A DNA stretch of 64,000 nt, from positions 248 through 64,247 of the forward strand of contig CANRMP010000012.1 in NCBI GenBank assembly GCA_947631765.1. Reading direction: 5' to 3'. Positions 4,154-21,107 of this stretch are shown in pieces. A model generated the notes under the pieces. It was given only the letters and a program-made list of their open reading frames with translations. It had not been told where the DNA came from and made no database searches. The stretch comes from an uncultured Clostridia bacterium. Its GTDB lineage: Bacteria; Bacillota; Clostridia; Oscillospirales; CAG-272. The translations under genes were made by a program, and so were the position numbers. Each line of letters opens with the position of its first letter. Position 1 is the first letter of the stretch.

Positions 4154-4867
4154 TTATATGTGTTCGGTAAGCCTCTTCATTACCTCGATGTAAGCGTCCT
4201 CAACGCCTCCCATATCTCTGCGGAAGCGGTCCTTGTCAAGCTTCTCGTGGGTTTTGGAATCCCAGAGGCGGCAAGTGTCGGGACTTATCTCATCGGCAAG
4301 CACAATTGTATTGTCGCTAAGGCGGCCGAACTCAAGCTTGAAATCAACAATTGTGACTCCGCATTCGTTCCAGAAGGCCTTGAGTTCTTCATTTACCTTA
4401 AAGGCGTATTTTTTAATAGTCTCGATTTCCTCCCATGTGGCAAGTCTCAGCGCTACCGCATGGTAATCGTTTATAAGCGGGTCTCCGAGCTCGTCGTTCT
4501 TGTATGAGAACTCAATTGTGGGAGCGTCGAAAACTATTCCCTCCTCAACGCCGTATCTCTTTGAAAAAGAGCCAGCGGAAATGTTTCTGATAATCACCTC
4601 AAGAGGAACGATAGTCACCTTTTTTACAAGCGTATCCCTATCACTTAGCTCCTTAACAAGGTGCGTGGGTACTCCCGCCTTTTCGAGTCTCTGCATAAGC
4701 AGGTTGCTCATTTTGTTGTTGATAACGCCCTTGCCCGCTATGGTCCCTTTTTTCAGACCGTTAAATGCGGTGGCGTCGTCCTTGTAGGACACTATGAGCA
4801 GCTGCTCGTCGTCTGTTTTAAATACCTTTTTTGCCTTGCCTTCGTAAAGCTGTTCTCTTTTTTCCAT
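4154..4867 (-). CDS. purC: phosphoribosylaminoimidazole-succinocarboxamide (SAICAR) synthase
   Basis: 237 aa. [10 protein letters not shown]...DDATAFNG...NKMSNLLM and a C-terminal LDKDRFRRD motif typical of PurC. Confidence 0.93.
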
Positions 4868-7115: not shown

Positions 7116-8888
7116 TTATTCCACGTCCTGAAGTGCGTCGTATCCTTCTTCTCCGGTACGCACCTTAACAACATTTTCAACATCATAAACGAATATCTTG
7201 CCGTCTCCGATATGTCCGGTATAAAGCACCTTCTTGGCGGTATCAATAACCGCGCTTACGGGAACCTTGCTTACCACAATGTCAACCTGAACCTTGGGAA
7301 GCAGCGAGGGCTCGACCTCAACTCCTCTGTAAAACTCCGGCTTACCCTTCTGAGCTCCGCAGCCGAGCACGTGCGAAACGGTCATGCCGGTTATTCCTAT
7401 TGCAACCATGGCGTTCTTGAGCGCCTCAAGCCTTGCTTCCTTGCAGACAATTTCAACCTTTGTGATCTTCACGCCGTCCGGAGCGCTCTTCTTTTCAAAG
7501 GTGGGAACCGCCTTGACCTCAACCGCCTCCGCAACCGGCGTATCGCCCGAAACAACGATAGGAGCCTCGTCCGCGTCTATGTATTCGGGAAGCATCGCAA
7601 AGCCCGCGTATGCCGAGGGAAGACCGTGTTCTGTAGCGTCAAGACCGGTAATTTCCTCTTCCTTGCTTACTCTTATTCCGACCGTTTTCTTGATTATAAG
7701 AAATACTATCGTTATTGTGATTGCCGTCCATGCCGCAACCGAGGCAAAGCCGAGAAGCTGAATACCGAGAAGCTCAAAGCCTCCGCCGTAGAAAAGACCT
7801 TCAATCGTCTTTCCCGAAGCGTTTGTTATCGAATAGCCGGGGGCTGTGTCGGTGGCAAGAAGTCCTACGGCAATTGTTCCCCAAATGCCGTTGAAGCAGT
7901 GTACCGCAACCGCGCCCACAGGGTCGTCGATATGAAGCACGTGGTCAAGAAACCACACTCCGAATACCACAAGCACTCCCGATACCGCGCCGATTATTGC
8001 AGCACCCAGCGCGTCTGTCACGTCACATCCGGCGGTAACCGCAACGAGTCCCGCAAGAGAGGCGTTAAGACACATCGAAACGTCCGGCTTGCCGTATTTT
8101 ATCCATGTGAATATCATGCACACAACCGTCGCCACGGAAGGCGCAACGGTAGTTGTAAGGAAGATTGACGCCAGCTGATCTACAGAGGTAGCCGCCGCGC
8201 CGTTAAAGCCGTACCAGCCGAGCCAGAGAATGAACACGCCGAGAGCACCGAGCGCTATGCTGTGACCGGGAAAGGCGTTGACCTTGACAACCTTGCCCTT
8301 TTCGTCTCTCTTGAATTTTCCGATTCTCGGTCCGAGAATTTTTGCGCCCACAAGAGCGGAAATACCGCCTACCATATGAATTGCGCAGGAGCCCGCAAAA
8401 TCGTGAAATCCGATTTGTGAGAGCCAGCCGCCGCCCCATATCCAGTGAGCCTCGATAGGATAAATAAGCGCCGAAATGACCGCAGAGTAAATGCAGTATG
8501 AAAGAAACTTTGTGCGCTCAGCCATTGCGCCCGAAACTATTGTTGCGGTCGTTGCGCAGAACACAAGGTTGAAAACAAAGCTCGAAAAGTCAAAGTCCTG
8601 ATACTTTGTGAAAATATCAAACCCGGGTTCTCCGATAAATCCGAACAGGTCCTCGCCCATAAGCAGTCCGAAGCCTATGAGAATAAAGACAACCGTTCCG
8701 ATACAGAAATCCATAAGGTTCTTCATTATAATGTTTCCGGTATTTTTCGGTCTTGTAAAGCCCGCTTCAACCATTGCAAAACCCGCCTGCATCCAAAACA
8801 CCAGCGCCGCGCCTATTAAAAACCACACGGCAAACAGCGAATCGTTTACAAGTGACGTTACTTCTTCCAAAGCCATGATAAAATCCAC
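7116..8888 (-). CDS. amtB: ammonium transporter (Amt) fused to a C-terminal P-II (GlnB/GlnK) domain
   Basis: 590 aa. The first ~430 aa are a multi-TM Amt (AGFAMVEAGF, HMVGGISALVGA, HCFNGIWG). The last 117 aa (7119..7469) are a complete P-II fold with T-loop GCGAQKGKPEFYRGVEVE and C-terminal GDGKIFVYDVENVVKVRTGEEG. Confidence 0.9.
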   Translation of the reverse strand: MDFIMALEEVTSLVNDSLFAVWFLIGAALVFWMQAGFAMVEAGFTRPKNTGNIIMKNLMDFCIGTVVFILIGFGLLMGEDLFGFIGEPGFDIFTKYQDFDFSSFVFNLVFCATTATIVSGAMAERTKFLSYCIYSAVISALIYPIEAHWIWGGGWLSQIGFHDFAGSCAIHMVGGISALVGAKILGPRIGKFKRDEKGKVVKVNAFPGHSIALGALGVFILWLGWYGFNGAAATSVDQLASIFLTTTVAPSVATVVCMIFTWIKYGKPDVSMCLNASLAGLVAVTAGCDVTDALGAAIIGAVSGVLVVFGVWFLDHVLHIDDPVGAVAVHCFNGIWGTIAVGLLATDTAPGYSITNASGKTIEGLFYGGGFELLGIQLLGFASVAAWTAITITIVFLIIKKTVGIRVSKEEEITGLDATEHGLPSAYAGFAMLPEYIDADEAPIVVSGDTPVAEAVEVKAVPTFEKKSAPDGVKITKVEIVCKEARLEALKNAMVAIGITGMTVSHVLGCGAQKGKPEFYRGVEVEPSLLPKVQVDIVVSKVPVSAVIDTAKKVLYTGHIGDGKIFVYDVENVVKVRTGEEGYDALQDVE

Positions 8889-8902
8889 CTCTTTAAATTT
8901 AA

Positions 8903-8941
8903 TTTTTCAAAAAGCATCCCCGCCTCCGTATGAAGCGGGGG
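8903..8941 (-). terminator. terminator or attenuator hairpin between glnN and amt::P-II
   Basis: Minus strand CCCCCGCUUCAUACGGAGGCGGGG followed by AUGCUUUUUG, located in the 76-nt spacer. Confidence 0.55.
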
Positions 8942-8964
8942 TGGCTTTAGATCGGTATTTAATT

Positions 8965-11061
8965 TCAGTTAACGCTGAAAAGCAGGTCTCCGTATGTCGG
9001 GAAGGGCCAGTACTTCTTTGCGGTAAGCGTCTCCGCCTCGTCGCAGGGGAGTCTTAGCTCGCTCATTTTTACAAGCAGCTTGTCACGAATGGCGTTTGCC
9101 ATCTCCATAATATCGCCTATCGACTTAATCTCAACAAGCGCCTTTTCAAGCTCGTCTGTCTTTGTCGCTATGCACTCGACAAGGGTTGAAAGCTTGTTGA
9201 CAAGCCCGTTCTCATAAATGCAGGAGGGACGAAGGTCAAGCGATTTTTTTGCCGCCGCTGTCTTTGCAAGCTCTAAAATGTAAGCCTCAATGGCGGGAGC
9301 TATTTCGGTTCTTGCCATATCCACCATTGTGTTTGCTTCGATAATAACCGTCTTGCAGTAGTTTTCAAGCATTATTTCACAGCGGGATTTAAGCTCCGCC
9401 TCCGAGAACACGCCGTGGGATATAAGCATATCCGCGTTCTTTTTATCAAGAAGGTGAGGCATACAGTCGGGAGTCGTGCGGTAATTGAGCAGTCCTCTTT
9501 CCTCTGTCGCAACCTTTATCCATGACTCGTCATAGCCGTTTCCGTTAAAGATTACTCTCTTGTGATCCTTTATTGTCTTCTTGATAAGGGCGTGAAGCGC
9601 CTCCTCAAAGTTTTCTGCGCTCTCAAGCCTGTCGGCGTAGCTCTTAAGGCTCTCGGCAACAGCGCTGTTAAGCATGATATTGGCGCACGCTATGCTGTTT
9701 GAGGAGCCGAGCATACGGAACTCAAACTTGTTGCCCGTGAATGCAAAGGGAGAGGTGCGGTTGCGGTCGGTTGTATCTCTGTTGAACTTGGGAAGGACGT
9801 CAACGCCGAGCTTCATCTGAGTTTTTTCAGCCGCGCTGTACGGCTTGTCGTTCTCAATAGCGTCCAGAATTGCCGAAAGCTCATCGCCAAGGAACATTGA
9901 AACGACTGCGGGAGGCGCCTCGTTGGCTCCCAGACGGTGGTCGTTTCCTGCCGTTGCGACAGAAATACGGAGGAGATCCTGATATTCGTCAACCGCCTTT
10001 ATAACGGCGCAAAGGAAGAGCAGGAACTGAGCATTCTCATAAGGCGTGTCGCCGGGTGAAAGAAGGTTTACGCCCGTGTCGGTAGCTATCGACCAGTTGT
10101 TGTGCTTACCGCTTCCGTTGACGCCCGCAAAAGGCTTTTCGTGAAGCAGGCAAACAAGTCCGTGACGGGAGGCAACCTTCTGCATAATCTCCATTGTGAG
10201 CTGGTTGTGGTCTGTCGCTATATTTGTGGTGCTGTATATCGGGGCAAGCTCGTGCTGAGCGGGCGCCACCTCGTTATGCTCGGTTTTTGCAAGTATTCCG
10301 AGCTTCCAAAGCTCCTCGTTGAGCTCCTGCATGTACGCCTCGACTCTCGGCTTAATAACTCCGAAATAGTGGTCGTCCATTTCCTGACCCTTCGGAGGCT
10401 TTGCACCAAACAGGGTTCTGCCGGTAAAGCGAAGGTCACGTCTTTTTTCATAAAGCGCTCTGTCAATAAGGAAATATTCCTGCTCGGGTCCTACCGAGGT
10501 GCGAACGCACTTTACGCTGTCGTTTCCGAAAAGCTTAAGTATTCTCATTGCCTGACGGTTGAGCGCCTCCATAGAACGAAGAAGAGGGGTCTTCTTGTCA
10601 AGCGCCTCGCCTCCGTATGAGCAAAACGCCGTCGGGATGCAAAGTGTTTTTCCTTTAATAAAGGCGTATGAGGTGGGGTCCCAAGCGGTATATCCTCTTG
10701 CCTCAAAGGTTGCCCGAAGTCCGCCCGAGGGGAATGAGGAAGCGTCAGGCTCGCCCTTTATAAGCTCCTTGCCCGAGAACTCCATTATAACTCCTCCGTC
10801 GGGAGAGGGCGAAATAAAGCCGTCGTGCTTTTCCGCCGTCACACCTGTAAGCGGCTGAAACCAATGCGTGTAATGCGTTGCGCCGTGAGCGACTGCCCAA
10901 TCCTTCATAGCGTTTGCCACGGCGTTTGCAACTCCGAGGTCAAGCTGTGTGCCTTCGTCGATTGTCTTTTTAAGCGACTGGTATACCTTTGCCGAAAGTG
11001 TAGCCTTCATCACTCTGTCGTCAAAAACCATGCTTCCAAAATACTCTGATACTGTTCCCAT
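8965..11061 (-). CDS. glnN: glutamine synthetase type III
   Basis: 698 aa, the size of GS-III. The N-terminus [15 protein letters not shown]...[12 protein letters not shown] is typical of GS-III; also [13 protein letters not shown] and [10 protein letters not shown]. Confidence 0.92.
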
Positions 11062-11200
11062 GATTTAATCTCCTTTTGTTTGTGTTATAAATGAAAAGGC
11101 AAGGGTGCCTTGTAATTAAGACGCCCTTGCCTTTAGTTACATATTTAGTTAAAATCGCTTTGCTTACATTATATGTACGCCGCAATAAAACGGTCAGCGC

Positions 11201-11255
11201 TTTAAAATAAAAATTCGCCCCGCAAGAAACTCTTCTTGCAGGACGCCTTTGCCCT
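11201..11255 (-). promoter_or_regulatory. glnN leader switch: AAAGGC-hexaloop hairpin overlapping an intrinsic terminator
   Basis: Minus strand AGGGC-AAAGGC-GTCCT (11255..11240). Terminator CGTCCTGCAAGAA-GAGT-TTCTTGCGGGGCG (11245..11216) plus AATTTTTATTTT (11215..11204). The two structures share GTCCT. Confidence 0.7.
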
Positions 11256-11265
11256 AACGCTATGC

Positions 11266-11294
11266 ATTATACACCCGAATTTTCAGATTGTCAA
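11266..11294 (-). promoter_or_regulatory. sigma-A-type promoter of the glnN-amt operon
   Basis: Minus strand TTGACA (11294..11289), 17 nt, TATAAT (11271..11266). Exact consensus. Confidence 0.75.
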
Positions 11295-11376: not shown

Positions 11377-11405
11377 TTGACAAATGGAGGTTTGTCGTGT
11401 ATAAT
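11377..11405 (+). promoter_or_regulatory. sigma-A-type promoter of the glutamate synthase operon
   Basis: TTGACA (11377..11382), 17 nt, TATAAT (11400..11405). Exact consensus, divergent from the glnN promoter. Confidence 0.75.
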
Positions 11406-11414
11406 GATACGAAG

Positions 11415-11477
11415 ATGAGCAAAGGCGTTCATTTGAGAGCAGATTTTTCTGCCTTGAATGTACGTCTTTGCTTTTTT
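11415..11477 (+). promoter_or_regulatory. glt leader switch: AAAGGC-hexaloop hairpin versus long intrinsic terminator
   Basis: ATGAGC-AAAGGC-GTTCAT (11415..11432). Alternatively GCAAAGGCGT (11419..11428) pairs with ACGTCTTTGC (11462..11471) at the base of a ~24-bp helix followed by TTTTTT (11472..11477). RBS GAAAGGAAGG, then ATG at 11504. Confidence 0.7.
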
Positions 11478-11503
11478 CATATTGAAAGGAAGGCAGAGCA
11501 ATT

Positions 11504-12586
11504 ATGGAAAAAGAAGGTCAGGTGAGGATCCCTTCGGGCTGCGCCATTGCGGCGCTTATTTCAAGAGAGGGAAAGAGAATCCCGGGAAATATAATAAGCG
11601 AAGCCATGAAACCGATGCACGATCGCTCAAACGGGCTGGGCGGCGGATTTGCCGCATACGGCATATATCCCGAATACAAGGATTTTTACGCCCTTCACAT
11701 GTTTTTTGACGAGAGAGCCACAAGAAAAAACTGTGAGCAGTTTTTAAAGGAAAGATTTGAAATCGTAAAATCCGAGATAATTCCGACAAGAAAGATAGCG
11801 GCGATAACCGACGAGCCTATAATATGGAGGTATTTTGTGGCGCCGCTTAAATCGGTGCTTCTCTCCTTACAGCTTGACGAGAAGGAGTTTGTGGCGCGCA
11901 CGGTCATGAAGATAAACACCGAAATGGAGGGAGCCTACGTATTCTCCAGCGGAAAGAACATGGGAACCTTCAAGGCGGTGGGCTTTCCCGAGGACGTCGG
12001 CGTTTTCTACAAGCTTGAAGAGTATCTCGGCTACAGCTGGACCTCACACGGTCGCTATCCCACAAACACCCCGGGATGGTGGGGAGGCGCTCACCCGTTC
12101 ACCCTGCTTGACTATTCGGTGGTGCACAACGGCGAGATATCCTCATATGACGCAAACCGTCGCTTTATTGAGATGTTCGGATATAAGTGTACGCTTAAAA
12201 CCGATACCGAGGTCATTACGTACATTATGGATTATTTACTCAGAGTTCAGCATCTCACCCTCTCCGAGACGGCGTCTGTTATTGCCGCTCCCTTCTGGAG
12301 CACAATAGAGGGCAAGGATGAACAGGAGCGGGAGAAGCTTTCATTCCTTCGCACCGTCTTCCCCAGTCTGCTCATTACCGGTCCCTTCTCGATAGTGCTC
12401 GGCTTTGACGGCGGACTTATGGCGCTCAACGACCGCTTGAAGCTACGCTCGATGGTGGTCGGAGAAAAGGACGATATGGTATACATTGCAAGCGAGGAAG
12501 CGGCAATACGCGTCATGGAGCCTGATGTTCAAAACATATACGCCCCCGCCGGCGGAGAGCCTGTAATAGTTAAGGTAAAGGAGTGA
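11504..12586 (+). CDS. glutamate synthase domain 1 as a stand-alone protein (class-II glutamine amidotransferase)
   Basis: 360 aa. Ntn-type Cys in IPSGCAIAAL, GHGRYPTNTPG-like SHGRYPTNTPGWWGGAHPF, and VVHNGEISSY. First gene of a split archaeal-type GltS operon. Confidence 0.85.
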   Translation: MEKEGQVRIPSGCAIAALISREGKRIPGNIISEAMKPMHDRSNGLGGGFAAYGIYPEYKDFYALHMFFDERATRKNCEQFLKERFEIVKSEIIPTRKIAAITDEPIIWRYFVAPLKSVLLSLQLDEKEFVARTVMKINTEMEGAYVFSSGKNMGTFKAVGFPEDVGVFYKLEEYLGYSWTSHGRYPTNTPGWWGGAHPFTLLDYSVVHNGEISSYDANRRFIEMFGYKCTLKTDTEVITYIMDYLLRVQHLTLSETASVIAAPFWSTIEGKDEQEREKLSFLRTVFPSLLITGPFSIVLGFDGGLMALNDRLKLRSMVVGEKDDMVYIASEEAAIRVMEPDVQNIYAPAGGEPVIVKVKE

Positions 12587-12593
12587 GCAATTA

Positions 12594-14099
12594 ATGTCGG
12601 ACATTTACATATATCCCGAATTTGAAGTTATAAGAAATCCGTCGCGCTGTATATGCTGTCGAGTTTGCGAGCGGCAGTGCGCAAATAAAGTGCATATTTA
12701 CGAAAAAGAGAGCAAAATGATGCTTTCCGACGAAAGCAAATGCGTCAATTGTCAGCGCTGTGTTTCGCTCTGCCCCACGCACGCGCTTAAAATCGTGAAA
12801 AGCGACTGCCGTCTGCGCGAGAATGCCAACTGGCAGGACGATACGATAAAGGAAATATACAAGCAGGCAAACAGCGGCGGCGTGCTTCTCTCCTCGATGG
12901 GAAACCCGAAGCCCCTGCCCGTCTACTGGGACAGGATATTAATTAACGCGTCGCAGGTGACAAACCCGCCTATCGACCCTTTGAGAGAGCCTATGGAGAC
13001 AAGGGTTTTTCTCGGTAAAAAGCCGGAAAAAATCACAAGGGATGAAAACGGCAAGCTTGTAACAAAGCTCCCTCCACAGCTTCATCTTTCAATGCCCGTA
13101 ATGTTTTCCGCAATGAGCTACGGCTCGATAAGCTACAACGCGCATGAAAGCCTTGCAAGGGCGGCAAGCGAGCTTGGAATATACTACAACACCGGAGAGG
13201 GCGGACTGCACGAGGACTTTTACTGCTACGGTGACAACACAATAGTTCAAGTAGCCTCGGGACGTTTCGGAGTTCATAAAAAATATCTTGACGCCGGTGC
13301 GGCGATAGAGATTAAAATGGGACAGGGCGCCAAGCCGGGAATCGGCGGTCACCTTCCGGGCGCTAAAATCGTCGGCGACGTTTCGCGCACACGAATGATT
13401 CCCGAAGGCTCTGACGCCATATCGCCTGCCCCTCACCACGACATATATTCAATAGAAGATTTAAGACAGCTTGTCTTTTCATTAAAGGAAGCGACAGGAT
13501 ACAAAAAGCCTGTTATAGTCAAGGTTGCGGCGGTTCACAACATCGCGGCAATTGCCAGCGGAATTGCGCGAAGCGGAGCCGACATAATCGCCATTGACGG
13601 CTTCAGGGGAGGTACCGGAGCCGCTCCCACAAGGATTCGTGACAATGTGGGAATACCGATAGAGCTTGCCCTTGCCGCGGTTGACCAAAGACTGCGCGAT
13701 GAGGGAATAAGAAACAACGTCTCGCTTGTCGCCGGAGGAAGCATCAGAAGCGCCGCCGACGTTATTAAGGCGGTAGCTCTCGGCGCGGACGCCTGCTATA
13801 TTGCAACCGCGGCGGTTATAGCTCTCGGATGTCATCTCTGCCGCACCTGCCAGAGCGGCAAGTGCAACTGGGGAATTGCAACTCAGAATCCGGAGCTTGT
13901 AAAACGCCTCAATCCCGACATCGGAAGCCGCCGGCTTGTAAATCTCATGACCGCTTGGAGGCATGAAATCATGGAGCTTATGGGCGGAATGGGTATAAAC
14001 TCGATAGAAAGCCTTCGCGGCAACCGTCTCATGCTTCGCGGAGTCGGACTTACCGACAGAGAGCTTTCGATACTCGGCATAGCTCACGCCGGCGAATAA
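12594..14099 (+). CDS. glutamate synthase FMN-binding domain protein with N-terminal 2x[4Fe-4S] ferredoxin module
   Basis: 501 aa. CxxCxxCxxxC motifs (CICCRVCERQC, CVNCQRCVSLCP), then the GltS_FMN core QVASGRFGV...KMGQGAKPGIGGHLPG...ISPAPHHDIYSIEDL...GFRGGTGAAP. Confidence 0.88.
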   Translation: MSDIYIYPEFEVIRNPSRCICCRVCERQCANKVHIYEKESKMMLSDESKCVNCQRCVSLCPTHALKIVKSDCRLRENANWQDDTIKEIYKQANSGGVLLSSMGNPKPLPVYWDRILINASQVTNPPIDPLREPMETRVFLGKKPEKITRDENGKLVTKLPPQLHLSMPVMFSAMSYGSISYNAHESLARAASELGIYYNTGEGGLHEDFYCYGDNTIVQVASGRFGVHKKYLDAGAAIEIKMGQGAKPGIGGHLPGAKIVGDVSRTRMIPEGSDAISPAPHHDIYSIEDLRQLVFSLKEATGYKKPVIVKVAAVHNIAAIASGIARSGADIIAIDGFRGGTGAAPTRIRDNVGIPIELALAAVDQRLRDEGIRNNVSLVAGGSIRSAADVIKAVALGADACYIATAAVIALGCHLCRTCQSGKCNWGIATQNPELVKRLNPDIGSRRLVNLMTAWRHEIMELMGGMGINSIESLRGNRLMLRGVGLTDRELSILGIAHAGE

Positions 14100-14161
14100 G
14101 GCGAGCCGCACGCGTCCAAATAAGCTTCGTTTATAAGATTAACGAAAGGTATAGTCATAAA

Positions 14162-14590
14162 ATGAAAAGAGTTTATGTAAACGAAAAATGGTGTCTCGGA
14201 TGTCACCTTTGCGAATATAACTGCGCCTTTGCAAATTCGGGAAAAATTGACATGGCGCTTGCCCTGAAAGATAAACCAATATATCCGAGAATACACATCG
14301 ACGGGGACGAAAAGGTGCCCTTTGCCATCTCCTGCCGTCACTGCACCGACCCGATTTGCGTAAAAAGCTGTATTTCGGGGGCGCTCAAATCAAAGGACGG
14401 CGTTATTACCGTCGATAAAGAGCGCTGTGTGGGCTGTCTTACCTGTATTCTCGTCTGCCCTTACGGCGCGCTTACCGAAGGAAATGACGGTGTGGCGACA
14501 AAATGCGAGCTTTGCATTGAAAACTCCTGTGAGAGTCCCGCCTGCGCCGCGGGCTGTCCCAACGGGGCAATTGTTTATGAGGAAAGGTGA
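14162..14590 (+). CDS. 4Fe-4S dicluster ferredoxin-domain protein
   Basis: 142 aa, Cys-rich, with CLGCHLCEYNC, CVGCLTCILVCP and CELCIENSC...CAAGCP. Confidence 0.8.
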   Translation: MKRVYVNEKWCLGCHLCEYNCAFANSGKIDMALALKDKPIYPRIHIDGDEKVPFAISCRHCTDPICVKSCISGALKSKDGVITVDKERCVGCLTCILVCPYGALTEGNDGVATKCELCIENSCESPACAAGCPNGAIVYEER

Positions 14591-14595
14591 ACAAA

Positions 14596-15843
14596 ATGTC
14601 AGAATACGTTATAATAGGCAACGGCGCCGCCGCGGCGGGCTGTATTGAAGGAATACGCAGTGTTGACAGAAAAACTCCGATAACCGTTATATCAAAGGAA
14701 AACCGTCCGGCGTACTGCCGTCCTCTTATTTCCTATTACCTTGAAGGAAAAGCCGTACCCGAAAGAATAGGCTACCGTGAGGCGGATTTTTACCAAAAGA
14801 ACGCCTGCAACGTACTCTACGGCAAAAGCGCCCTCTCTGTTGACGGCGAAAAAAAGTACGTCACCCTTGACAGCGGGGAGACCCTGCCCTACACCGCTTT
14901 GTGCATTGCCGCCGGCTCCTCTCCCATAATGCTCCCGATAGCGGGAATTGAGAAGGTAAAAAAGCTTTTTACCTTCATGACGCTTGACGACGCTACTGCA
15001 ATAAAGGAGGCTGTCGGCAAAGAAAGCCGCGTTCTCATAATAGGCGCGGGACTTATCGGCTTAAAGTGCGCCGAGGGACTTTGCGAAAGTGTGAAAAGCA
15101 TTGCGGTTTGCGATCTTGCCGCACGTGTGCTTTCAAGCATACTTGACGATGAGTGCGCAGCTCTTATGCAAAAAAAGCTTGAGGAACACAATGCGAGCTT
15201 TATGCTCGGCGACACTGTCGAAGGCTTTGAAGAAAACGAGGCTTTGATGAGAAGCGGCAAAAAAGTAGGCTTTGATATTGTCATAATGGCAGCCGGAGTG
15301 CGCCCGAACACCTCTGCCGCAAAGACGGCCGGAGCCGAGGTAAATCGCGGAATTATCGTAAACGACAGAATGGAAAGCACAGTCAGGGGTATATATGCCG
15401 CGGGAGACTGCGCAGAAGGAATGGACATATCGCTTGGCGCGCGCCGCGTGCTTGCCATTCTCCCAAACGCCTATATGCAGGGCTATTGCGCCGGTGTGAA
15501 TATGGCGGGCGGGGAGTATGTGTTTGACAAGGGCATTCCGATGAACGCCATCGGCTTTTTCGGGCTCCACGCTCTGAGCGCCGGAAGCTATTTTACAAAG
15601 GAGCAAGGCGGAGAAATATACGAGGAAAGGTCGGAAGGCAAAATCAGGCGGCTTTTCACAAAAGACAACCGACTTTGCGGATTTATGTTCATCGGAGACA
15701 CAGATAAAATAGGAATTTACACCTCTCTTATCCGCGACAGGGTGCCTCTTGACACAATAAATTTTGATCTGCTGAAAAAAAGTGCAACTTTTGCAGCTTT
15801 TTCTCCCGAAATACGTGGAAAAAAATTCGGAGGTGTGGTATAA
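14596..15843 (+). CDS. NAD(P)/FAD-dependent pyridine-nucleotide oxidoreductase (probable electron-input subunit)
   Basis: ORF track starts at GTG 14587. ATG 14596 has GAGGAAAGG upstream. Two Rossmann motifs, IIGNGAAAAGC and IIGAGLIGLKCAE, plus AAGDCAE. Confidence 0.8.
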   Translation: MSEYVIIGNGAAAAGCIEGIRSVDRKTPITVISKENRPAYCRPLISYYLEGKAVPERIGYREADFYQKNACNVLYGKSALSVDGEKKYVTLDSGETLPYTALCIAAGSSPIMLPIAGIEKVKKLFTFMTLDDATAIKEAVGKESRVLIIGAGLIGLKCAEGLCESVKSIAVCDLAARVLSSILDDECAALMQKKLEEHNASFMLGDTVEGFEENEALMRSGKKVGFDIVIMAAGVRPNTSAAKTAGAEVNRGIIVNDRMESTVRGIYAAGDCAEGMDISLGARRVLAILPNAYMQGYCAGVNMAGGEYVFDKGIPMNAIGFFGLHALSAGSYFTKEQGGEIYEERSEGKIRRLFTKDNRLCGFMFIGDTDKIGIYTSLIRDRVPLDTINFDLLKKSATFAAFSPEIRGKKFGGVV

Positions 15844-16565
15844 TGACAGTAATAGACGCCGCAGGGCTCGATTACAAGGAGCTTAACGACCTTATAAGAG
15901 AGGGCAAGGAAGACATAACGCTTATAAACTGCCTCGGGCAAAGGTTTATCGCCTCGGGCGCAGAAAAGCTCCATCTTGTTATAAAGGGCATACCCGGCAA
16001 TGCGCTCGGCGCTTATCTTGACGGCGCCGTGATAGACGTCCTCGGCAACGCTCAGGACGCCGTGGGCGACACCATGAACGACGGAGCTATAGTAATTCAC
16101 GGAAATATCGGAGACGCCGCGGGATACGCCATGAGGGGCGGAAAAATATTTGTGAAAAACAACGCCGGATACCGCGCCGGCATACACATGAAGGCGTATA
16201 AAGATAAGGTTCCCGTTATGGTCATCGGAGGGTGCGCGGGAAGCTTTCTCGGAGAGTATCAGGCGGGAGGAAAAATCGCCGTTTTGGGGCTTGAGAGCAA
16301 CGGAAAAAAGATTGTCGGAAACTTTCCCTGCACCGGTATGCACGGCGGTATGATGTTTCTGCGCGGCAAATGCGAAGGTGTAGCCTTTCCGGCAAAAGTG
16401 CATGTCAAAACCGCCTCCGATTCCGACATCAGCGAGATATACAATGAAATACACGAGTTTTGCACGCTCTTTGAAAAGGACGAAAAGGAAATTATCTCCT
16501 CTCCTTTTACATTAATAACACCCGATACAAAAAATCCGTACAAGCAGATGTACGTTGCAAATTAA
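15843..16565 (+). CDS. glutamate synthase C-terminal GXGXG-domain protein
   Basis: 240 aa. Repeated G-x-G beta-helix motifs (GIPGNALGAYLDG, GNAQDAVGDTMNDG, GNIGDAAGYAMRGG, NNAGYRAG, GGCAGSFLGEYQAGG). Start overlaps the upstream stop (TAATG). Confidence 0.85.
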   Translation: MTVIDAAGLDYKELNDLIREGKEDITLINCLGQRFIASGAEKLHLVIKGIPGNALGAYLDGAVIDVLGNAQDAVGDTMNDGAIVIHGNIGDAAGYAMRGGKIFVKNNAGYRAGIHMKAYKDKVPVMVIGGCAGSFLGEYQAGGKIAVLGLESNGKKIVGNFPCTGMHGGMMFLRGKCEGVAFPAKVHVKTASDSDISEIYNEIHEFCTLFEKDEKEIISSPFTLITPDTKNPYKQMYVAN

Positions 16566-16614: not shown

Positions 16615-17841
16615 ATGAAATACTCGGCACAGGAGGTCATGCAGTTTGTCAGCGAGGAGGACGTTAAGTTCATCCGTCTCGCCTTCTGCGATGTATACGG
16701 CGTCCAAAAGAACATATCGATAATGCCCGGAGAGCTGTCCCGCGCCTTTGAACAAGGTATCGCCTTCGACGCCTCGGCAATCGGGAGCTTGGGTACTTTA
16801 AAAACGGGCGACCTTTTTATCCGTCCCGACCCTTCCACTCTCTCAGTCCTTCCTTGGCGCCCCGACCACGGAAGAGTGGTGCGCCTTTTCGGCAGTATTA
16901 CCTATCCCGACGGCAGACCCTTTGAAAATGACACGAGAGGACTGCTTATAAAAGCGGTTAAGGATGCCGAAAAGGAAGGAATTCAGTTCAATATCGGGGC
17001 TGAGACCGAATTTTATCTTTTCAGGCTTGATGAAAACGGAGCAAACACAAGCATTCCCTATGACGAGGCGGGATATATGGATATCGCCCCCGAGGACAGA
17101 GGGGAAAACGTGCGGCGTGAGATCTGCCTTACCTTGGAGCAGATGGGTATACGCCCCGAAAGCTCTTACCATGAAGCGGGACCCGGACAAAACGAAATAG
17201 ATTTCTGCTATTCAGACCCTCTTTCAGCCGCCGACAACGCCACAACCTTCCGAACAGTTGTCAAAACCGTGGCTCACCGCAACGGTCTGTGGGCTGATTT
17301 TTCGCCAAGACCTCTTGAGGGAAAGCCCGGAAACGGCTTTTATATCAATATTTCCGCCAAGGATGCAAACGGCAGGGCAAGAGACGATCTTCTGCCCCAT
17401 ATCATAGCGGGGCTTATCGAAAAAACCCCCGATATTACCGTTTTTCTCAATCCAACAAAAAATTCCTACAGCCGTTTCGGAAAATTCAACGCCCCCTCCT
17501 GCATTTCCTGGGCGTATGAAAACCGCTCTCAGCTTATACGCGTTCCTGCCGCCTCGGGCAATTACCGCCGCGCACAGCTTCGCTCCTCCGACCCGACGGC
17601 AAACCCGTATCTTGCCTTGGCGCTTGTAATATACTCCGCGCTCTACGGAATAAAAAACAAAACAAATCCCCCTTTTCCTTGCGAGACGGATTTATGCCAA
17701 GCAGAGGTAAAGGACGGTGCGCCTTTAAAAAAGCTCCCGTCTTCGCTTGAAGAGGCAAGCGAAATTGCGCAAAAGAGCGATTTTATAAAAAAATGCCTGC
17801 CGGACAGTCTTGCACAGAAATACTTTGTCCGCGCAAAATAA
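16615..17841 (+). CDS. glutamine synthetase type-I-like protein with substituted catalytic residues (probable pseudoenzyme or sensor)
   Basis: 408 aa. Clear GS-I fold (FIRLAFCDVYG, GAETEFYLF, SYHEAGPGQNEIDF, NRSQLIRVP, DPTANPYLALA). However it has PGNGFYINIS in place of NGSGMH.N.S, KFNAP in place of GYEAP, and RRAQLRS in place of R.E.RS. Confidence 0.8.
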   Translation: MKYSAQEVMQFVSEEDVKFIRLAFCDVYGVQKNISIMPGELSRAFEQGIAFDASAIGSLGTLKTGDLFIRPDPSTLSVLPWRPDHGRVVRLFGSITYPDGRPFENDTRGLLIKAVKDAEKEGIQFNIGAETEFYLFRLDENGANTSIPYDEAGYMDIAPEDRGENVRREICLTLEQMGIRPESSYHEAGPGQNEIDFCYSDPLSAADNATTFRTVVKTVAHRNGLWADFSPRPLEGKPGNGFYINISAKDANGRARDDLLPHIIAGLIEKTPDITVFLNPTKNSYSRFGKFNAPSCISWAYENRSQLIRVPAASGNYRRAQLRSSDPTANPYLALALVIYSALYGIKNKTNPPFPCETDLCQAEVKDGAPLKKLPSSLEEASEIAQKSDFIKKCLPDSLAQKYFVRAK

Positions 17842-17883: not shown

Positions 17884-18468
17884 GTGAGCTTAGAACAACC
17901 TGTTTACAGCGTTCTTGCGGTATCAGCTTCAGACAGCTTCAATAAATCCCTTATAAGCCTGCTCCCCGATTCAAGGTTCAGTCCCTTGCGGTTTGAAGAG
18001 AGCGTAAGCGCGGCAAAAAGGGCATTTCTTGAGCGGCGCTACGATTTTGTTATTATTAACTCTCCCCTGCCCGACGACGTGGGCACAAGACTTGCTATTG
18101 ACATTTGCAGTGAAAAGAACGGCATTTGTCTGCTTTTGGTAAAAGCCGAGCTTTACGAGGCGGTTTACAACAGAGTGTACGAACATGGAGTCTACGTAAT
18201 GCCGAAGCCCATGTCAAAGCAGATGTTTTCAGAGGCTATGGACTTTATGATTTCCACAGAATGTCGCCTCAGAAAGCTTGAAAAGAAAACCGTGTCGATT
18301 GAAGAAAAGATGCAGGAAATACGCACGGTGAACCGAGCAAAATGGATACTTATCGAGCGCCTCAAAATGACCGAGAGCGACGCCCACCGATATATCGAAA
18401 AACAGGCTATGGACCGTTGCGTCTCGCGCAGCGATATCGCCGAGAGCATTATAAAAACGTATTCTTAA
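17884..18468 (+). CDS. ANTAR-domain RNA-binding antiterminator with a pseudo-receiver N-domain (AmiR/NasR-like architecture)
   Basis: 194 aa. GTG start with AAGGAGGG 7 nt upstream. C-terminal VNRAKWILIERLKMTESDAHRYIEKQAMDRCVSRSDIAESII is an ANTAR domain. The receiver-like N-domain has Asn59 (FVIINSPLP) where the phospho-Asp normally sits. Confidence 0.85.
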   Translation: MSLEQPVYSVLAVSASDSFNKSLISLLPDSRFSPLRFEESVSAAKRAFLERRYDFVIINSPLPDDVGTRLAIDICSEKNGICLLLVKAELYEAVYNRVYEHGVYVMPKPMSKQMFSEAMDFMISTECRLRKLEKKTVSIEEKMQEIRTVNRAKWILIERLKMTESDAHRYIEKQAMDRCVSRSDIAESIIKTYS

Positions 18469-18616: not shown

Positions 18617-19297
18617 ATGAGAATACTTATAGCAGAGGATGAAAAGGACCTTAACATGATAATCGGAAAGAAGCTGCAAAGCGAGGGATACGTTACCGAC
18701 AGCTGCTACGACGGGCAGGAGGCTATTGACATACTCTCCTACACCGATTATGACGCTGTGATACTCGACATAATGATGCCTCGGGCGGACGGATTCAAGG
18801 TTCTCTCGGCTCTGAGAAGCGCCGGAAAGACCACGCCGGTACTTTTTCTTACCGCGCGGGACGCGGTTGAGGACCGTGTAAAGGGGCTTGACTGCGGCGC
18901 AAACGACTATCTTGTCAAACCCTTTTCCTTTGAAGAGCTTATGGCGCGCCTGCGCGCTATGACAAGAATATCATTCGGAAGTACCGGCAATATTCTCACT
19001 GTCGGCGACCTTACGCTTGATCTTGCGGCAAGAAAAGCGACAAGGGGCGGCAAGGACATAAAGCTCTCCGCTAAGGAGTTTGCCCTTCTTGAATACCTAA
19101 TGCACAACAAGGGAATTGTGCTTCCCCGCAAAAAGATCGAAGATCACATATGGAATTTCGACTATGAGGGCGGCACCAACGCGGTTGACGTATACATCAG
19201 CTATTTAAGAAAGAAAATAGACGGCGACAATCCGATAAAGCTGATACACACCATTCGCGGAAGCGGCTATGTGATACGGGAGGAAAATGTCGAATGA
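18617..19297 (+). CDS. OmpR-family response regulator
   Basis: 226 aa. MRILIAEDE, AVILDIMMP (phospho-Asp), LTARD, VKPF, and a winged-helix C-terminus ending IRGSGYVIR. Confidence 0.92.
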   Translation: MRILIAEDEKDLNMIIGKKLQSEGYVTDSCYDGQEAIDILSYTDYDAVILDIMMPRADGFKVLSALRSAGKTTPVLFLTARDAVEDRVKGLDCGANDYLVKPFSFEELMARLRAMTRISFGSTGNILTVGDLTLDLAARKATRGGKDIKLSAKEFALLEYLMHNKGIVLPRKKIEDHIWNFDYEGGTNAVDVYISYLRKKIDGDNPIKLIHTIRGSGYVIREENVE

Positions 19298-20706
19298 AGC
19301 ACCTTTCCATAAGGCTTAAAATCACCCTTTGGTTCACGACGGCGCTTATATTTGTAGTGCTTTTCACATCCTTTATGCTGCTTTACATAACGCACGCAAT
19401 AGGTCAGAAGGAAATACGGGACACTCTGATAAGCGCGGTCGACGAAAACACGGTTGAAATTGAGTTTTACCGAAACATAGACGGCATTGACATAAAAAGC
19501 TCTCCCGACCGCTTTGTGGAATATAACGGCGGCTATCTCAGAATAGACAACGACTTTCTTGACGAGGTCAACGAGGTCTTTACCGCGCTTTACACCTCCT
19601 CGGGAATGTTCATGTATGGTGAAAACCCCATTTACCGCGAGTCCTCAGAGCTTTCCTTTGTAGATTTTCAGATACAGCAAAAAAAGGCTGACGGCGTGAC
19701 TTATTATATTTTCGACCGAAAGCTCACAGACCGAGGACTTGAGGATTTGTGGCTTCGCGGAGTGGTTTCAAGCGAGCGCGGCATGGCGCAGACCAATCTG
19801 ATAACAAGACTTTCGCTCATAGTTATGCCGCTTCTTGTGCTTTGCGCCTCGGTGGGAGGATACTTAATAGCGCGCAACGCGCTTCGCCCAATTAAGCAGA
19901 TTTCAGAGACCGCCGACCGCATCGGGCGGGAGGGCAACCTCAAAGAACGTATAGACCTCGGACCGGGAAACGACGAGCTTCACAAGCTTGCCGCCACCTT
20001 CAACGAAATGTTCGACAAGATAGAAAAGTCTTTTGAGACAGAGCGACAGTTCACCTCGGACGCCTCTCACGAGCTTCGCACCCCCATGTCGGTGATATCG
20101 GCGCAGTGCGAATACATACTTGAAAAGCCGCGTGAAAAAGAGGAATACCTTGAAGCGCTCACCGTTATCGACCGTCAGAGCCGCAAAATGTCAAAGCTTA
20201 TAAACAGTATGCTGAGCTTTACAAGACTTGAGGTCAGTCCCGACAGGTACAAAATCGAAGCCATTGACCTTAGCGCTCTTCTTTCCTCCCTTTGCGACGA
20301 TATGGCATTAATAAAGGAAAAGAACATCACGCTCGAGCGCGAGATTGAAGAGGGCGCCGCGCTCCAAGGCAACTCCGAGCTTTTGACAAGGCTTTTTACA
20401 AATATAATAAGCAACGCATACCGCTACGGAAAAAAGGACGGATATATAAAGGTAAAACTCAAAAAGCTTGAAGGGCAAATTGAGGTTACTGTTCAGGACA
20501 ACGGCATCGGTATTGCAAAGGAGGAACAGGAAAAGATATTCAGACGCTTTTATCAGTCCGACCGCTCAAGAAGCGGCGAGGGCATGGGACTGGGGCTTGC
20601 AATGGCAAGCAGGATAGCGGTGTTTCACGGCGGAAAAATAAGCGTACAAAGCGAGCTTGGCAAAGGAAGCGCGTTTAAGATTACTCTTCCCGTCAGAAAA
20701 ATATAA
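19294..20706 (+). CDS. sensor histidine kinase (two TM segments, HAMP, HisKA, HATPase_c)
   Basis: 470 aa. H-box FTSDASHELRTPMS, N-box NIISNAYRYG, G-boxes DNGIGI and GMGLGLA. Overlaps the response regulator stop by 4 nt. Confidence 0.92.
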   Translation: MKHLSIRLKITLWFTTALIFVVLFTSFMLLYITHAIGQKEIRDTLISAVDENTVEIEFYRNIDGIDIKSSPDRFVEYNGGYLRIDNDFLDEVNEVFTALYTSSGMFMYGENPIYRESSELSFVDFQIQQKKADGVTYYIFDRKLTDRGLEDLWLRGVVSSERGMAQTNLITRLSLIVMPLLVLCASVGGYLIARNALRPIKQISETADRIGREGNLKERIDLGPGNDELHKLAATFNEMFDKIEKSFETERQFTSDASHELRTPMSVISAQCEYILEKPREKEEYLEALTVIDRQSRKMSKLINSMLSFTRLEVSPDRYKIEAIDLSALLSSLCDDMALIKEKNITLEREIEEGAALQGNSELLTRLFTNIISNAYRYGKKDGYIKVKLKKLEGQIEVTVQDNGIGIAKEEQEKIFRRFYQSDRSRSGEGMGLGLAMASRIAVFHGGKISVQSELGKGSAFKITLPVRKI

Positions 20707-20766: not shown

Positions 20767-21107
20767 CGGCAAATACCCGATATTTTAATTATCGCCCTTT
20801 TCATCCCGTTCGGGCTTATTATTAAAAATCTTTAAAAACCGCCGAAAAACCATAAAAAAGCGGAATTACACCTTTTAATATTCAAAATGCCCGGGGCAGA
20901 TTTTCGCCCCGAAAATTTTTTTAAAAAAATTTTTGATTTTTTGTTTTTTTAATGTTATTTTAATTTTTGACCGCTATAATTAAGACACAAAGAGAAAGAC
21001 AAACAAAATCTCTCCAAGCTCCCGAAAGGAAAAAAACAAAAACAAAAAACAAAAAAATATTTAAGAAAGGAAAAGCCTTTGCAAAGCAAAGGCACGGTAA
21101 AATTATT

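Follow-up and report, generated by a model that had tools for sequence, protein, structure and literature searches.

The window analysed here, a 64,000 nucleotide stretch of contig CANRMP010000012.1 from an uncultured Clostridia bacterium (assembly GCA_947631765.1), carries an operon for glutamate synthase (GOGAT) that ends in two further genes, the first for a protein resembling type I-alpha glutamine synthetase (GS-I-alpha, where GS is glutamine synthetase) and the second for an ANTAR antiterminator (Table 1). It is somewhat more probable than not that the GS-like protein is a pseudo-GS which has kept the GS-I-alpha fold, does not synthesize glutamine, and serves as a receptor for 2-oxoglutarate (2-OG), and so for nitrogen status, that gates the ANTAR antiterminator. 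It is most likely the nitrogen sensor that turns on the ammonium assimilation operons of many gut Clostridia, because in the related genomes checked it is always directly upstream of an ANTAR gene and has its 2-OG pocket intact. Catalytic residues have been lost, the pocket is conserved, the gene is syntenic with that of an ANTAR protein with a pseudo-receiver, and the operon leaders contain covarying hairpins together with terminators.

The GS-like protein and its fold

The open reading frame (ORF) is intact from the ATG at 16615 to the stop codon at 17841, and the 408 aa product has the Pfam domains Gln-synt_N (PF03951, E 2.6e-18) and Gln-synt_C (PF00120, E 5e-81). By HMMER, the nearest solved structures are those of the GS of Methanosarcina mazei (8S59 and 8TFB, E 3e-98, 40% identity), followed by the GS-I-alpha proteins of Bacillus subtilis, Listeria, Staphylococcus aureus, and Paenibacillus. 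The AlphaFold (AF2) model of the protein (pLDDT 84, pTM 0.89) matches M. mazei GS (8tfk/8s59) in Foldseek with a TM-score of 0.93, and the beta-grasp N domain and catalytic C domain of the GS fold are thus found by Pfam and by AF2 and Foldseek. The initial annotation of this region, which had described a GS-I-like protein here, is in this respect borne out. The score against the TIGR00653 GlnA equivalog model is 307 bits, which is below its 429 bit cut-off. The GS-like protein thus belongs to the GS-I-alpha fold family but, by the tests applied, not among the functional GlnA proteins.

The protein is 36–39 aa shorter than GS-I-alpha. It had been suggested that about 35 aa are missing from the C-terminus, but only about 22 aa are C-terminal and the remainder is made up of internal deletions past residue 250. 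Measured against an 81% identical relative, the gene has a dN/dS of 0.13, similar to that of its neighbours, which points to purifying selection and not to decay. It evolves much faster than the true enzymes when these are compared between the same genomes: the median identity to the window is 63% for the GS-like protein, 83% for the type III glutamine synthetase GS-III, and 87% for the glutamate synthase domain, and GS-III is the more conserved in 35 out of 35 loci. More than 8000 protein homologs were found, the best 120 of which are 401–420 aa long, come from Lachnospiraceae, Oscillospiraceae, Acutalibacteraceae, and other Clostridia, and are called "glutamine synthetase (family protein)" where they are named at all.

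Loss of active-site residues

Substitutions were placed by two alignments, one made by HMMER to M. mazei 8s59/8tfb and the other by MAFFT to B. subtilis GlnA, the sequence used for the latter agreeing with the published numbering at D53, R62, E132, E134, E189, E196, H245, E304, E333, Y20, and E36. The residue-by-residue HMMER alignment puts Tyr243, Asn292, and Gln321 at the metal n2 His, the catalytic flap Glu, and the n2 Glu, and the MAFFT alignment agrees. These are the three substitutions that the initial annotation had proposed, and its reading of the FDGSS motif as FDASA is also correct. A fourth change, which it did not include, is the Thr61 found at the position of Arg62, a residue whose role in glutamine feedback has been described (PMC10799026). 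The n1 metal ligands (B. subtilis E134, E189, E196) are present as E132, E187, and E194. The n2 set (B. subtilis E132, H245, E333) is incomplete, with E130 kept and the other two replaced by Tyr243 and Gln321. The Arg62/Glu304 network that forms the glutamine lock in B. subtilis is missing, the residues being Thr61 and Asn292 in the window and Asp and Lys in most orthologs.

The orthologs are 80 proteins, from one genome for each of the 80 closest species. The n2 His is kept in all 80, Tyr243 being seen only in the window and in a contig that is its 99% twin. The n2 Glu is likewise kept in all 80, and Gln321 is shared with the 81% relative P0002. The flap position is never Glu, being Lys in 77 and Arg in three, and Asn292 is common to the window lineage and P0002. 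At the Arg62 position there is Asp in 68 orthologs and Gly in 10. Asn240 of the window is Pro in 73 of the 80, and essentially all of them retain the other metal, ATP, and glutamate ligands. All three substitutions are therefore real in the window protein, but only the flap change is a trait of the family, with Tyr243 and Gln321 specific to the window lineage. By the ortholog scoring, the window protein is a further degenerated member of a clade that is marked by remodelling of the E flap and the D50' loop. Strict covariation between a flap Lys and an Asp at position 62 was considered and rejected, since 10 orthologs have Gly at position 62 and Asp is found together with Asn in P0002. On these residues, it is very unlikely that the window protein has working glutamine synthetase activity, in line with the earlier remark that this copy need not be catalytic.

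Conservation of the 2-oxoglutarate pocket

The GlnA1 of M. mazei is activated by 2-OG bound between subunits, in contact with F24, R26, R87, R172', R173', and S189' (PMC11957540). In the GS of Methanothermococcus thermolithotrophicus (MtGS), the pocket consists of F18, R20, A34, R88, V94, R174, R175, and S191, with a small residue needed at 34, and B. subtilis GS has no such pocket, having Y20 and E36 and no Arg88 (PMC10799026). The HMMER alignment, which has no gaps in these regions, maps the pocket to F19, R21, R82, R167, R168, and S184 of the window protein, with S35 at the small site and V88. The full set, made up of a Phe, four Arg, a Ser, and the small residue that corresponds to MtGS position 34, is thus present, where B. 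subtilis GS has Y20, E36, and T83. Among the 80 orthologs, R21 is found in 79, and F19, S or A at 35, R82, V88, R167, R168, and S184 are found in every one.

More distant relatives show the same pocket beside a decayed active site. Of the 107 full-length representatives at 50% identity nearest the query, 37 have no more than five of 11 catalytic residues. In these, the frequency of the commonest residue is 0.86–1.00 at the pocket positions and 0.16–0.62 at the catalytic positions, against an all-position median of 0.49, with 13% of positions reaching 0.9. The low catalytic and high pocket conservation indicates that selection protects the pocket and not the chemistry. One of these, P0155, located between GOGAT and ANTAR genes, has two of 11 catalytic residues and five of five pocket residues. 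The degenerate forms are abundant, the 90% identity clusters of P0125 and P0126 having 1420 and 1360 members, and are also found in the cultured Lachnospiraceae bacterium A10 and, in another form, in Bullifex porci. Apparently the catalytic losses have been repeated and independent in different lineages while the pocket has stayed invariant.

The representative search also returned proteins with tandem GS-like stretches, which look like giant multi-domain proteins and lie outside the window (P0121, P0124, P0242). Indeed, its top match is 4424 aa long and has 12 such stretches, and others have six in 2757 aa and three in 1356 aa.

Pairing with an ANTAR protein that lacks the phospho-acceptor

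The 194 aa product of the following gene matches the ANTAR domain (PF03861, E 1e-16), with a marginal match to Response_reg (E 0.013). Alignment to Rv1626 places Asn59, in the motif IINSPLPDD, at the position of the phospho-acceptor Asp. This Asn is found in 69 of 72 ANTAR orthologs, so the loss of the phospho-Asp is conserved and not accidental, and the acidic pair is replaced by Ser and Ala or Ser. The AF2 model (pLDDT 87) has a five-stranded receiver fold, a long helix at 112–135, and a three-helix ANTAR bundle, its best Foldseek matches being Rv1626, EutV, and AmiR. That this receiver cannot be phosphorylated, as had been stated in the initial annotation, is thereby upheld, and the protein would need a non-phosphoryl input. 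An OmpR-type response regulator and kinase encoded downstream (18617..20706) were considered as the kinase of the ANTAR protein and rejected, there being no phospho-acceptor and these genes being absent from all related loci except the 99% twin.

The ANTAR gene is within a few tens of bases 3' of the GS-like gene in all of the informative loci (77 out of 77). In the remaining three of the 80, which are not informative, the contig ends less than 180 bp past the GS-like stop codon. It is also immediately downstream in seven out of seven further relatives, namely those from deeper in the family, which have 46–52% identity and were drawn from the 50% identity representative library (P0122, P0125, P0126, P0129, P0133, P0155), and the 81% relative P0002. 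None of three controls with a canonical site (P0216, P0262, P0251) has an ANTAR neighbour. The co-occurrence that a functional pair had been expected to show is therefore seen in all of the informative loci and relatives sampled.

In the majority of the 80 loci, the pair has GOGAT genes upstream, but it also occurs with only a divergent GS-III (L034, L042, L050, L058, L063, L065, L079) and with neither GOGAT nor GS-III (L015, L053, L056, L069, L080). The GS-like gene and the ANTAR gene are thus a conserved unit that is independent of the presence of GOGAT or GS-III, and its occurrence where GOGAT is missing is the reason for rejecting the suggestion that the GS-like protein is a GOGAT subunit. 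Enzymes that use or make glutamine account for nearly all of the other genes found beside the pair: CTP synthase, asparagine synthase, NAD synthase, GOGAT, GS-III, glutamate dehydrogenase, and AmtB-PII. In L081-L083, L085, and L086, which are without GOGAT, it is flanked by NAD synthase, CTP synthase, asparagine synthase, and glutamate dehydrogenase, and the regulon may reach consumers of glutamine. The pair is also present in the spirochaete Bullifex porci (L094, of the P0133 cluster) and in L079, from a bin labelled Bacteroidaceae, which would suggest either mis-binning or horizontal spread to lineages outside Bacillota.

Leader RNAs of the two nitrogen operons

The 442 bp spacer between GS-III and GOGAT contains two perfect divergent σ70 promoters, and the leaders that follow them contain one element on the GOGAT side and two on the GS-III side. 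The 5' arm of each leader terminator holds or overlaps a 6 bp hairpin (P1) with an AARGGC hexaloop. In the GOGAT leader, the terminator 5' arm contains the whole of P1, and therefore the two are mutually exclusive. In the GS-III leader, there are two terminators in tandem, as is common in the orthologous GS-III leaders, and the second P1 forms five pairs because its outermost sixth pair is A·A. The rule for ANTAR targets is a hexaloop with A1 and G4 (PMC3369931, PMC12591593). Such a hexaloop and an overlapping intrinsic terminator are present at all three leader elements. Terminators in both nitrogen operon leaders, which the initial annotation had recognized, are therefore part of conserved elements in which an ANTAR-type hairpin is set against a terminator.

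There are four copies of the core motif in the window, where 0.46 would be expected, and three of the four are in the leaders. The other, a copy of GCAARGGCGT (GCAAGGGCGT) at 4725-4734 on the minus strand, was rejected as chance, being within the purC coding sequence (GKGV) and having no terminator. The leader motif is at the same positions in 56 of the 80 related loci. Over 62 distinct instances of P1, 96% of the hairpin cells are paired, against at most 57% in slid controls, and four of the six pairs change on both sides, with U-A/A-U and G-C/A-U exchanges from one leader class to the other. This covariation score was reached by none of 500 shuffles. In two deep relatives, an AAAGGC loop precedes the GS-like gene on different stems.

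The loop of a second hairpin, which forms the tip of the terminator, varies and fits A1/G4 in only some instances, which would make the leader element at best a variant of the ANTAR target. In the terminator of the GOGAT operon, an apical stem (11440-11455, plus strand) is kept as CAGA...UCUG across many species, in the type A leaders L001-L076, and its loop varies freely; the stem may offer a further point of contact for a protein or may be needed for the structure. No Rfam family reaches its gathering threshold anywhere in the window, and there is nothing near threshold in the leaders.

A proposed nitrogen sensor for the ANTAR antiterminator

In the mechanism that we propose, 2-OG would be bound by the GS-like protein between subunits, at the allosteric pocket that archaeal GS-I-alpha enzymes are known to have. 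At low 2-OG it would hold the ANTAR protein, and when nitrogen is scarce and 2-OG is high the ANTAR protein would be freed, the holding or releasing being done by the remodelled E flap (Lys or Asn) and D50' loop (Asp or Thr at 62) or by an oligomeric change. Free ANTAR protein would bind the AARGGC hexaloop hairpin at the 5' end of the leaders of both operons and block the overlapping terminators, which would turn on glnN(GS-III)-amtB/glnK and the operon of GOGAT, GS-like, and ANTAR genes. The logic would be that of AmiC/AmiR and NasS/NasT. In MtGS and M. mazei GS, the N domain moves on binding of 2-OG, which also gives the D50' loop and the E flap a new structure and drives assembly of the oligomer (PMC10799026, PMC11957540), and it is on the E flap and D50' loop that TnrA docks in B. 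subtilis GS (PMC4335299). AmiC and NasS sequester the ANTAR partner encoded beside them until the ligand comes, and these partners, AmiR and NasT, are the two ANTAR proteins known to have receivers that cannot be phosphorylated (PMC12591593, PMC3795266).

The direction of control is suggested by Clostridium thermocellum, the link to which rests on gene order. When the type I GS of that species is deleted, nitrogen assimilation genes are reportedly up although glutamine is high. A wider proposal, which we hold more tentatively, is that a large clade of gut and rumen Clostridia, plus a spirochaete, has turned this protein from an enzyme into a dedicated 2-OG receptor, which with a pseudo-receiver ANTAR protein would be a master nitrogen switch acting through a single-hairpin ANTAR target.

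The initial annotation, which is partly supported overall, had arrived at a sensor that responds to glutamine or glutamate. The sensor part of this agrees with the strictly conserved two-gene module, and its analogies with AmiC-AmiR and GS-TnrA were apt, the TnrA docking loops being those with the family-specific changes (PMC4335299). The choice of ligand is another matter, since the active site decays freely in relatives and the pocket is invariant, which favours 2-OG at the allosteric pocket over glutamine or glutamate in the active site. The same partnership with glutamine or glutamate, with or without ATP, as the signal in a remnant active site, as B. subtilis GS acts on TnrA and GlnR, is unlikely, although it may hold for the close orthologs. 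The n1 and glutamate-binding residues are kept in the window protein, including E132, E187, E194, R287, and R304, the whole ligand set is kept in the 80 orthologs, and the flap and position 62 are charge-swapped to Lys and Asp in most of these, so that the contact (PMC10799026) could be kept. The window protein, however, has no equivalents of Arg62 and Glu304, the active-site positions are among the least conserved in the 37 degenerate relatives, and in the ANTAR-linked P0125, P0126, P0129, and P0155 the glutamate, metal, and ATP ligands are lost wholesale and the module stays.

The same losses bear on whether this is still an enzyme, an altered-chemistry GS or a gamma-glutamyl-amine ligase co-expressed with GOGAT, with the ANTAR gene adjacent only as the operon regulator. 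This is improbable. GS-family proteins with altered ammonium sites do act as gamma-glutamyl-polyamine synthetases (GSI-gamma, PMC10799026), the orthologs keep metal, ATP, and Glu ligands, and the gene is within an assimilation operon, but the window protein has lost the catalytic base and two n2 ligands, its likeness to characterised alternative ligases is far weaker than to GS-I-alpha, and the pair persists in about 18 loci without GOGAT and where nearly all of the catalytic residues have gone. A little less credible again is control of the ANTAR protein by other means, such as the PII domain of AmtB-PII, with the GS-like protein serving some other purpose that is not catalysis, for instance the modulation of GS-III or GOGAT. 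In its favour, 2-OG is classically sensed by PII proteins, the target operon encodes one of these, and GlnK, which is of the PII type, binds TnrA in B. subtilis (PMC4335299). Against this, the invariant partner of the ANTAR gene is the GS-like gene, AmtB-PII, GS-III, and GOGAT each being absent from many loci, and the GS-like protein has a conserved 2-OG pocket of its own. It is hardly believable that GS-III has made the GS-like protein redundant and left it a decaying GS paralog without function. Catalytic residues have been lost and evolution is faster than that of GS-III, but the ORF is intact with a dN/dS of 0.13, the length is constant at about 400–440 aa across thousands of homologs, non-catalytic positions are invariant, and the synteny is strict.

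Several points weigh against a 2-OG receptor that gates the ANTAR protein. P0122 is linked to an ANTAR gene yet has a fully canonical site, and because of this the roles of sensor and enzyme may coexist. The 80 close orthologs keep all of the metal, ATP, and glutamate ligands, so that ligand binding or some chemistry is possible. B. subtilis GS does not bind 2-OG and yet conserves two Arg and the Ser of the pocket, which leaves Phe19, Arg82, and the small residue at 35 as the discriminating evidence. There is one conserved A..G hexaloop hairpin per leader element, against two in the published ANTAR target (PMC3369931). The C. thermocellum protein Clo1313_2031 is placed in the GS-like clade by gene order. 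Finally, binding of 2-OG, a physical complex of the GS-like and ANTAR proteins, and the direction of control are what we infer from the sequences.

Surrounding genes

The glutamate synthase is split and archaeal-like, with separate GATase, FMN/Glu_synthase with an N-terminal ferredoxin, 4Fe-4S, Pyr_redox_2, and GXGXG proteins. The gene order is the same in most of the orthologous loci, but about a third of the related loci are without the Fer4 and Pyr_redox_2 genes, so that there are two versions of the operon. The initial annotation had correctly placed the GS-like gene as the penultimate gene of this operon, and the GS-III it had read at 8965..11061 is confirmed by Pfam. A divergent GS-III gene is present at 50 of the 80 loci. 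AmtB-PII (7116-8888, minus strand) is a single 590 aa ORF combining an ammonium transporter with PII, a fusion that is also seen in L085. It is located downstream of GS-III and may supply a second 2-OG input to the same regulon. Downstream of the ANTAR gene are an OmpR-type regulator and a HAMP histidine kinase (18617-20706, plus strand) and a 747 aa protein with seven PepSY repeats (20967-23210, plus strand). The two-component genes and the PepSY protein are probably unrelated to the nitrogen module, since among the related loci the 99% twin contig is the only one that has them too.

Table 1. Positions in the window of the GS-like and ANTAR genes, the residues discussed, and the associated operons and leader elements
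Feature	Position	Strand	Remarks
Gene for GS-I-alpha-like protein	16615..17841	+	408 aa; predicted non-catalytic 2-OG sensor (pseudo-GS)
Gene for pseudo-receiver and ANTAR antiterminator (NitR-like)	17884..18468	+	194 aa; Asn59 (18058-18060) at phospho-Asp position
Tyr243 codon	17341..17343	+	n2 metal His (B. subtilis His245); GSGMH reads GNGFY; both alignments
Asn292 codon	17488..17490	+	Catalytic flap Glu (B. subtilis Glu304, Salmonella typhimurium E327); PGYEAP reads GKFNAP
Gln321 codon	17575..17577	+	n2 metal Glu (B. subtilis Glu333); R-I-E-L-R reads R-A-Q-L-R
Thr61 codon	16795..16797	+	Position of glutamine feedback Arg62 (B. subtilis numbering), D50' loop; MAFFT
2-OG pocket span	16669..17166	+	F19 (16669), R21 (16675), S35, R82 (16858), V88, R167-R168 (17113-17118), S184 (17164)
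Split glutamate synthase genes	11504..16565	+	GATase_2, Glu_synthase, Fer4, Pyr_redox_2, GXGXG (Pfam); upstream of the GS-like gene, co-transcribed
Divergent candidate target operon	7116..11061	-	GS-III 8965..11061; AmtB-PII fusion 7116..8888 (Pfam)
σ70 promoter of GOGAT/GS-like/ANTAR operon	11377..11405	+	12/12 hexamer matches, 17 nt spacer
σ70 promoter of GS-III/AmtB-PII operon	11266..11294	-	12/12 matches
P1 hairpin, candidate ANTAR site	11415..11432	+	AUGAGC[AAAGGC]GUUCAU; hexaloop with A1 and G4; conserved with covariation in 42 loci
Leader terminator	11411..11480	+	Minimum free energy -37.3 kcal/mol, z -5.4, followed by U-run
First GS-III leader element	11206..11256	-	P1 UAGGGC[AAAGGC]GUCCUG (11256..11239) overlaps terminator 11245..11216 and U-run
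Second GS-III leader element	11090..11136	-	P1 AAAGGC[AAGGGC]GUCUUA (11134..11117) inside terminator

Significance

NtrBC and TnrA/GlnR circuits are not known from many Clostridia, among them the abundant Lachnospiraceae and Oscillospiraceae of the gut and C. thermocellum, a biofuel organism. If the proposal made here is right, there would be a concrete mechanism of nitrogen sensing, with named residues, for widespread gut bacteria, which would explain the deregulation of nitrogen genes on deletion of the C. thermocellum "glutamine synthetase". Metabolic reconstructions of gut microbes make use of "glutamine synthetase" annotations, thousands of which would need correcting. The family would be a clean natural case of a transition from enzyme to receptor, in which the allosteric site has outlived the active site, as well as a third architecture joining a ligand sensor to an ANTAR protein. 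It would also be a GS pseudoenzyme acting as a small-molecule receptor, of which no report was found in the literature searched.

In that literature, no ANTAR-linked GS is described as being a pseudoenzyme or 2-OG receptor or as binding the ANTAR protein, and no characterised GS/ANTAR complex was found. The supposition in the initial annotation that such a pair is uncharacterised thus holds for the complex, but the adjacency of glnA and nitR was already described (PMC6316151). Control by the ANTAR protein NitR is, in the words of the same review, "not fully understood", and a 2025 review of antiterminators makes no mention of glutamine or GlnA (PMC12591593). While the adjacency is long known, the pseudoenzyme and 2-OG reading is absent from the literature searched.

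Comparison with known systems

The GlnA of Clostridium saccharobutylicum is reported to be an active enzyme. Its gene adjoins the ANTAR gene nitR, according to work cited in PMC6316151. In C. thermocellum, the order is Clo1313_2030 for the ANTAR protein, 2031 for a type I GS, 2032-2036 for GOGAT, and 2038 for GS-III (PMC4676874, PMC9888227), and the title of a 2017 paper by Rydzak states that deletion of the type I GS "deregulates nitrogen metabolism". The window has the same module, with a type I GS gene directly 5' of an ANTAR gene in a nitrogen assimilation cluster. The likeness is one of gene order, and in this literature (PMC6316151, PMC4676874, PMC9888227) the GS is not treated as a pseudoenzyme or 2-OG receptor and the control of NitR is described as not understood.

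In sequence and structure, the best match is to the methanogen GS-I-alpha that are activated by 2-OG (M. mazei GlnA1, 8S59/8TFB; MtGS, 8OOQ), with which the whole pocket is shared. These are active enzymes with all of the catalytic residues, in which 2-OG tunes catalysis or assembly, whereas the window protein is without the flap base, two n2 ligands, and about 22 C-terminal residues, and its output is proposed to be a partner protein. A parallel in function is the trigger enzyme of B. subtilis, a GS-I-alpha dodecamer that relays nitrogen status to TnrA and GlnR by binding these regulators directly, through the loops that are changed in the window protein (PMC4335299). The B. subtilis GS is, however, active, senses glutamine through Arg62 and Glu304, both absent in the window, and has no 2-OG pocket, and its partners are MerR-type DNA binders where that proposed in the window is an RNA-binding ANTAR protein. 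Lacking this glutamine network and the catalysis, the GS-like protein does not belong to the B. subtilis family, nor, since its fold is another, to that of AmiC and NasS.

On the RNA side, the targets of EutV/EutW and NasR resemble the window leaders in having a short stem, capped by an A1/G4 hexaloop, in competition with an intrinsic terminator (PMC3369931). They are dual hexaloop hairpins, whereas the element in the window has one conserved hairpin of this type, right where the transcript has its 5' end. The window ANTAR protein has the features of the AmiR type, with a C-terminal ANTAR domain after a coiled-coil helix and a receiver-like domain without the phospho-Asp. Indeed, in AmiC-AmiR of Pseudomonas aeruginosa and NasS-NasT of Paracoccus, a non-phosphorylatable, receiver-like ANTAR protein is encoded beside a ligand-binding protein, as it is in the window (PMC12591593, PMC3795266). 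The AmiC and NasS sensors have the fold of periplasmic binding proteins, for amide and nitrate, and the neighbour in the window has a GS fold with a 2-OG pocket, which makes the architecture analogous and not homologous.

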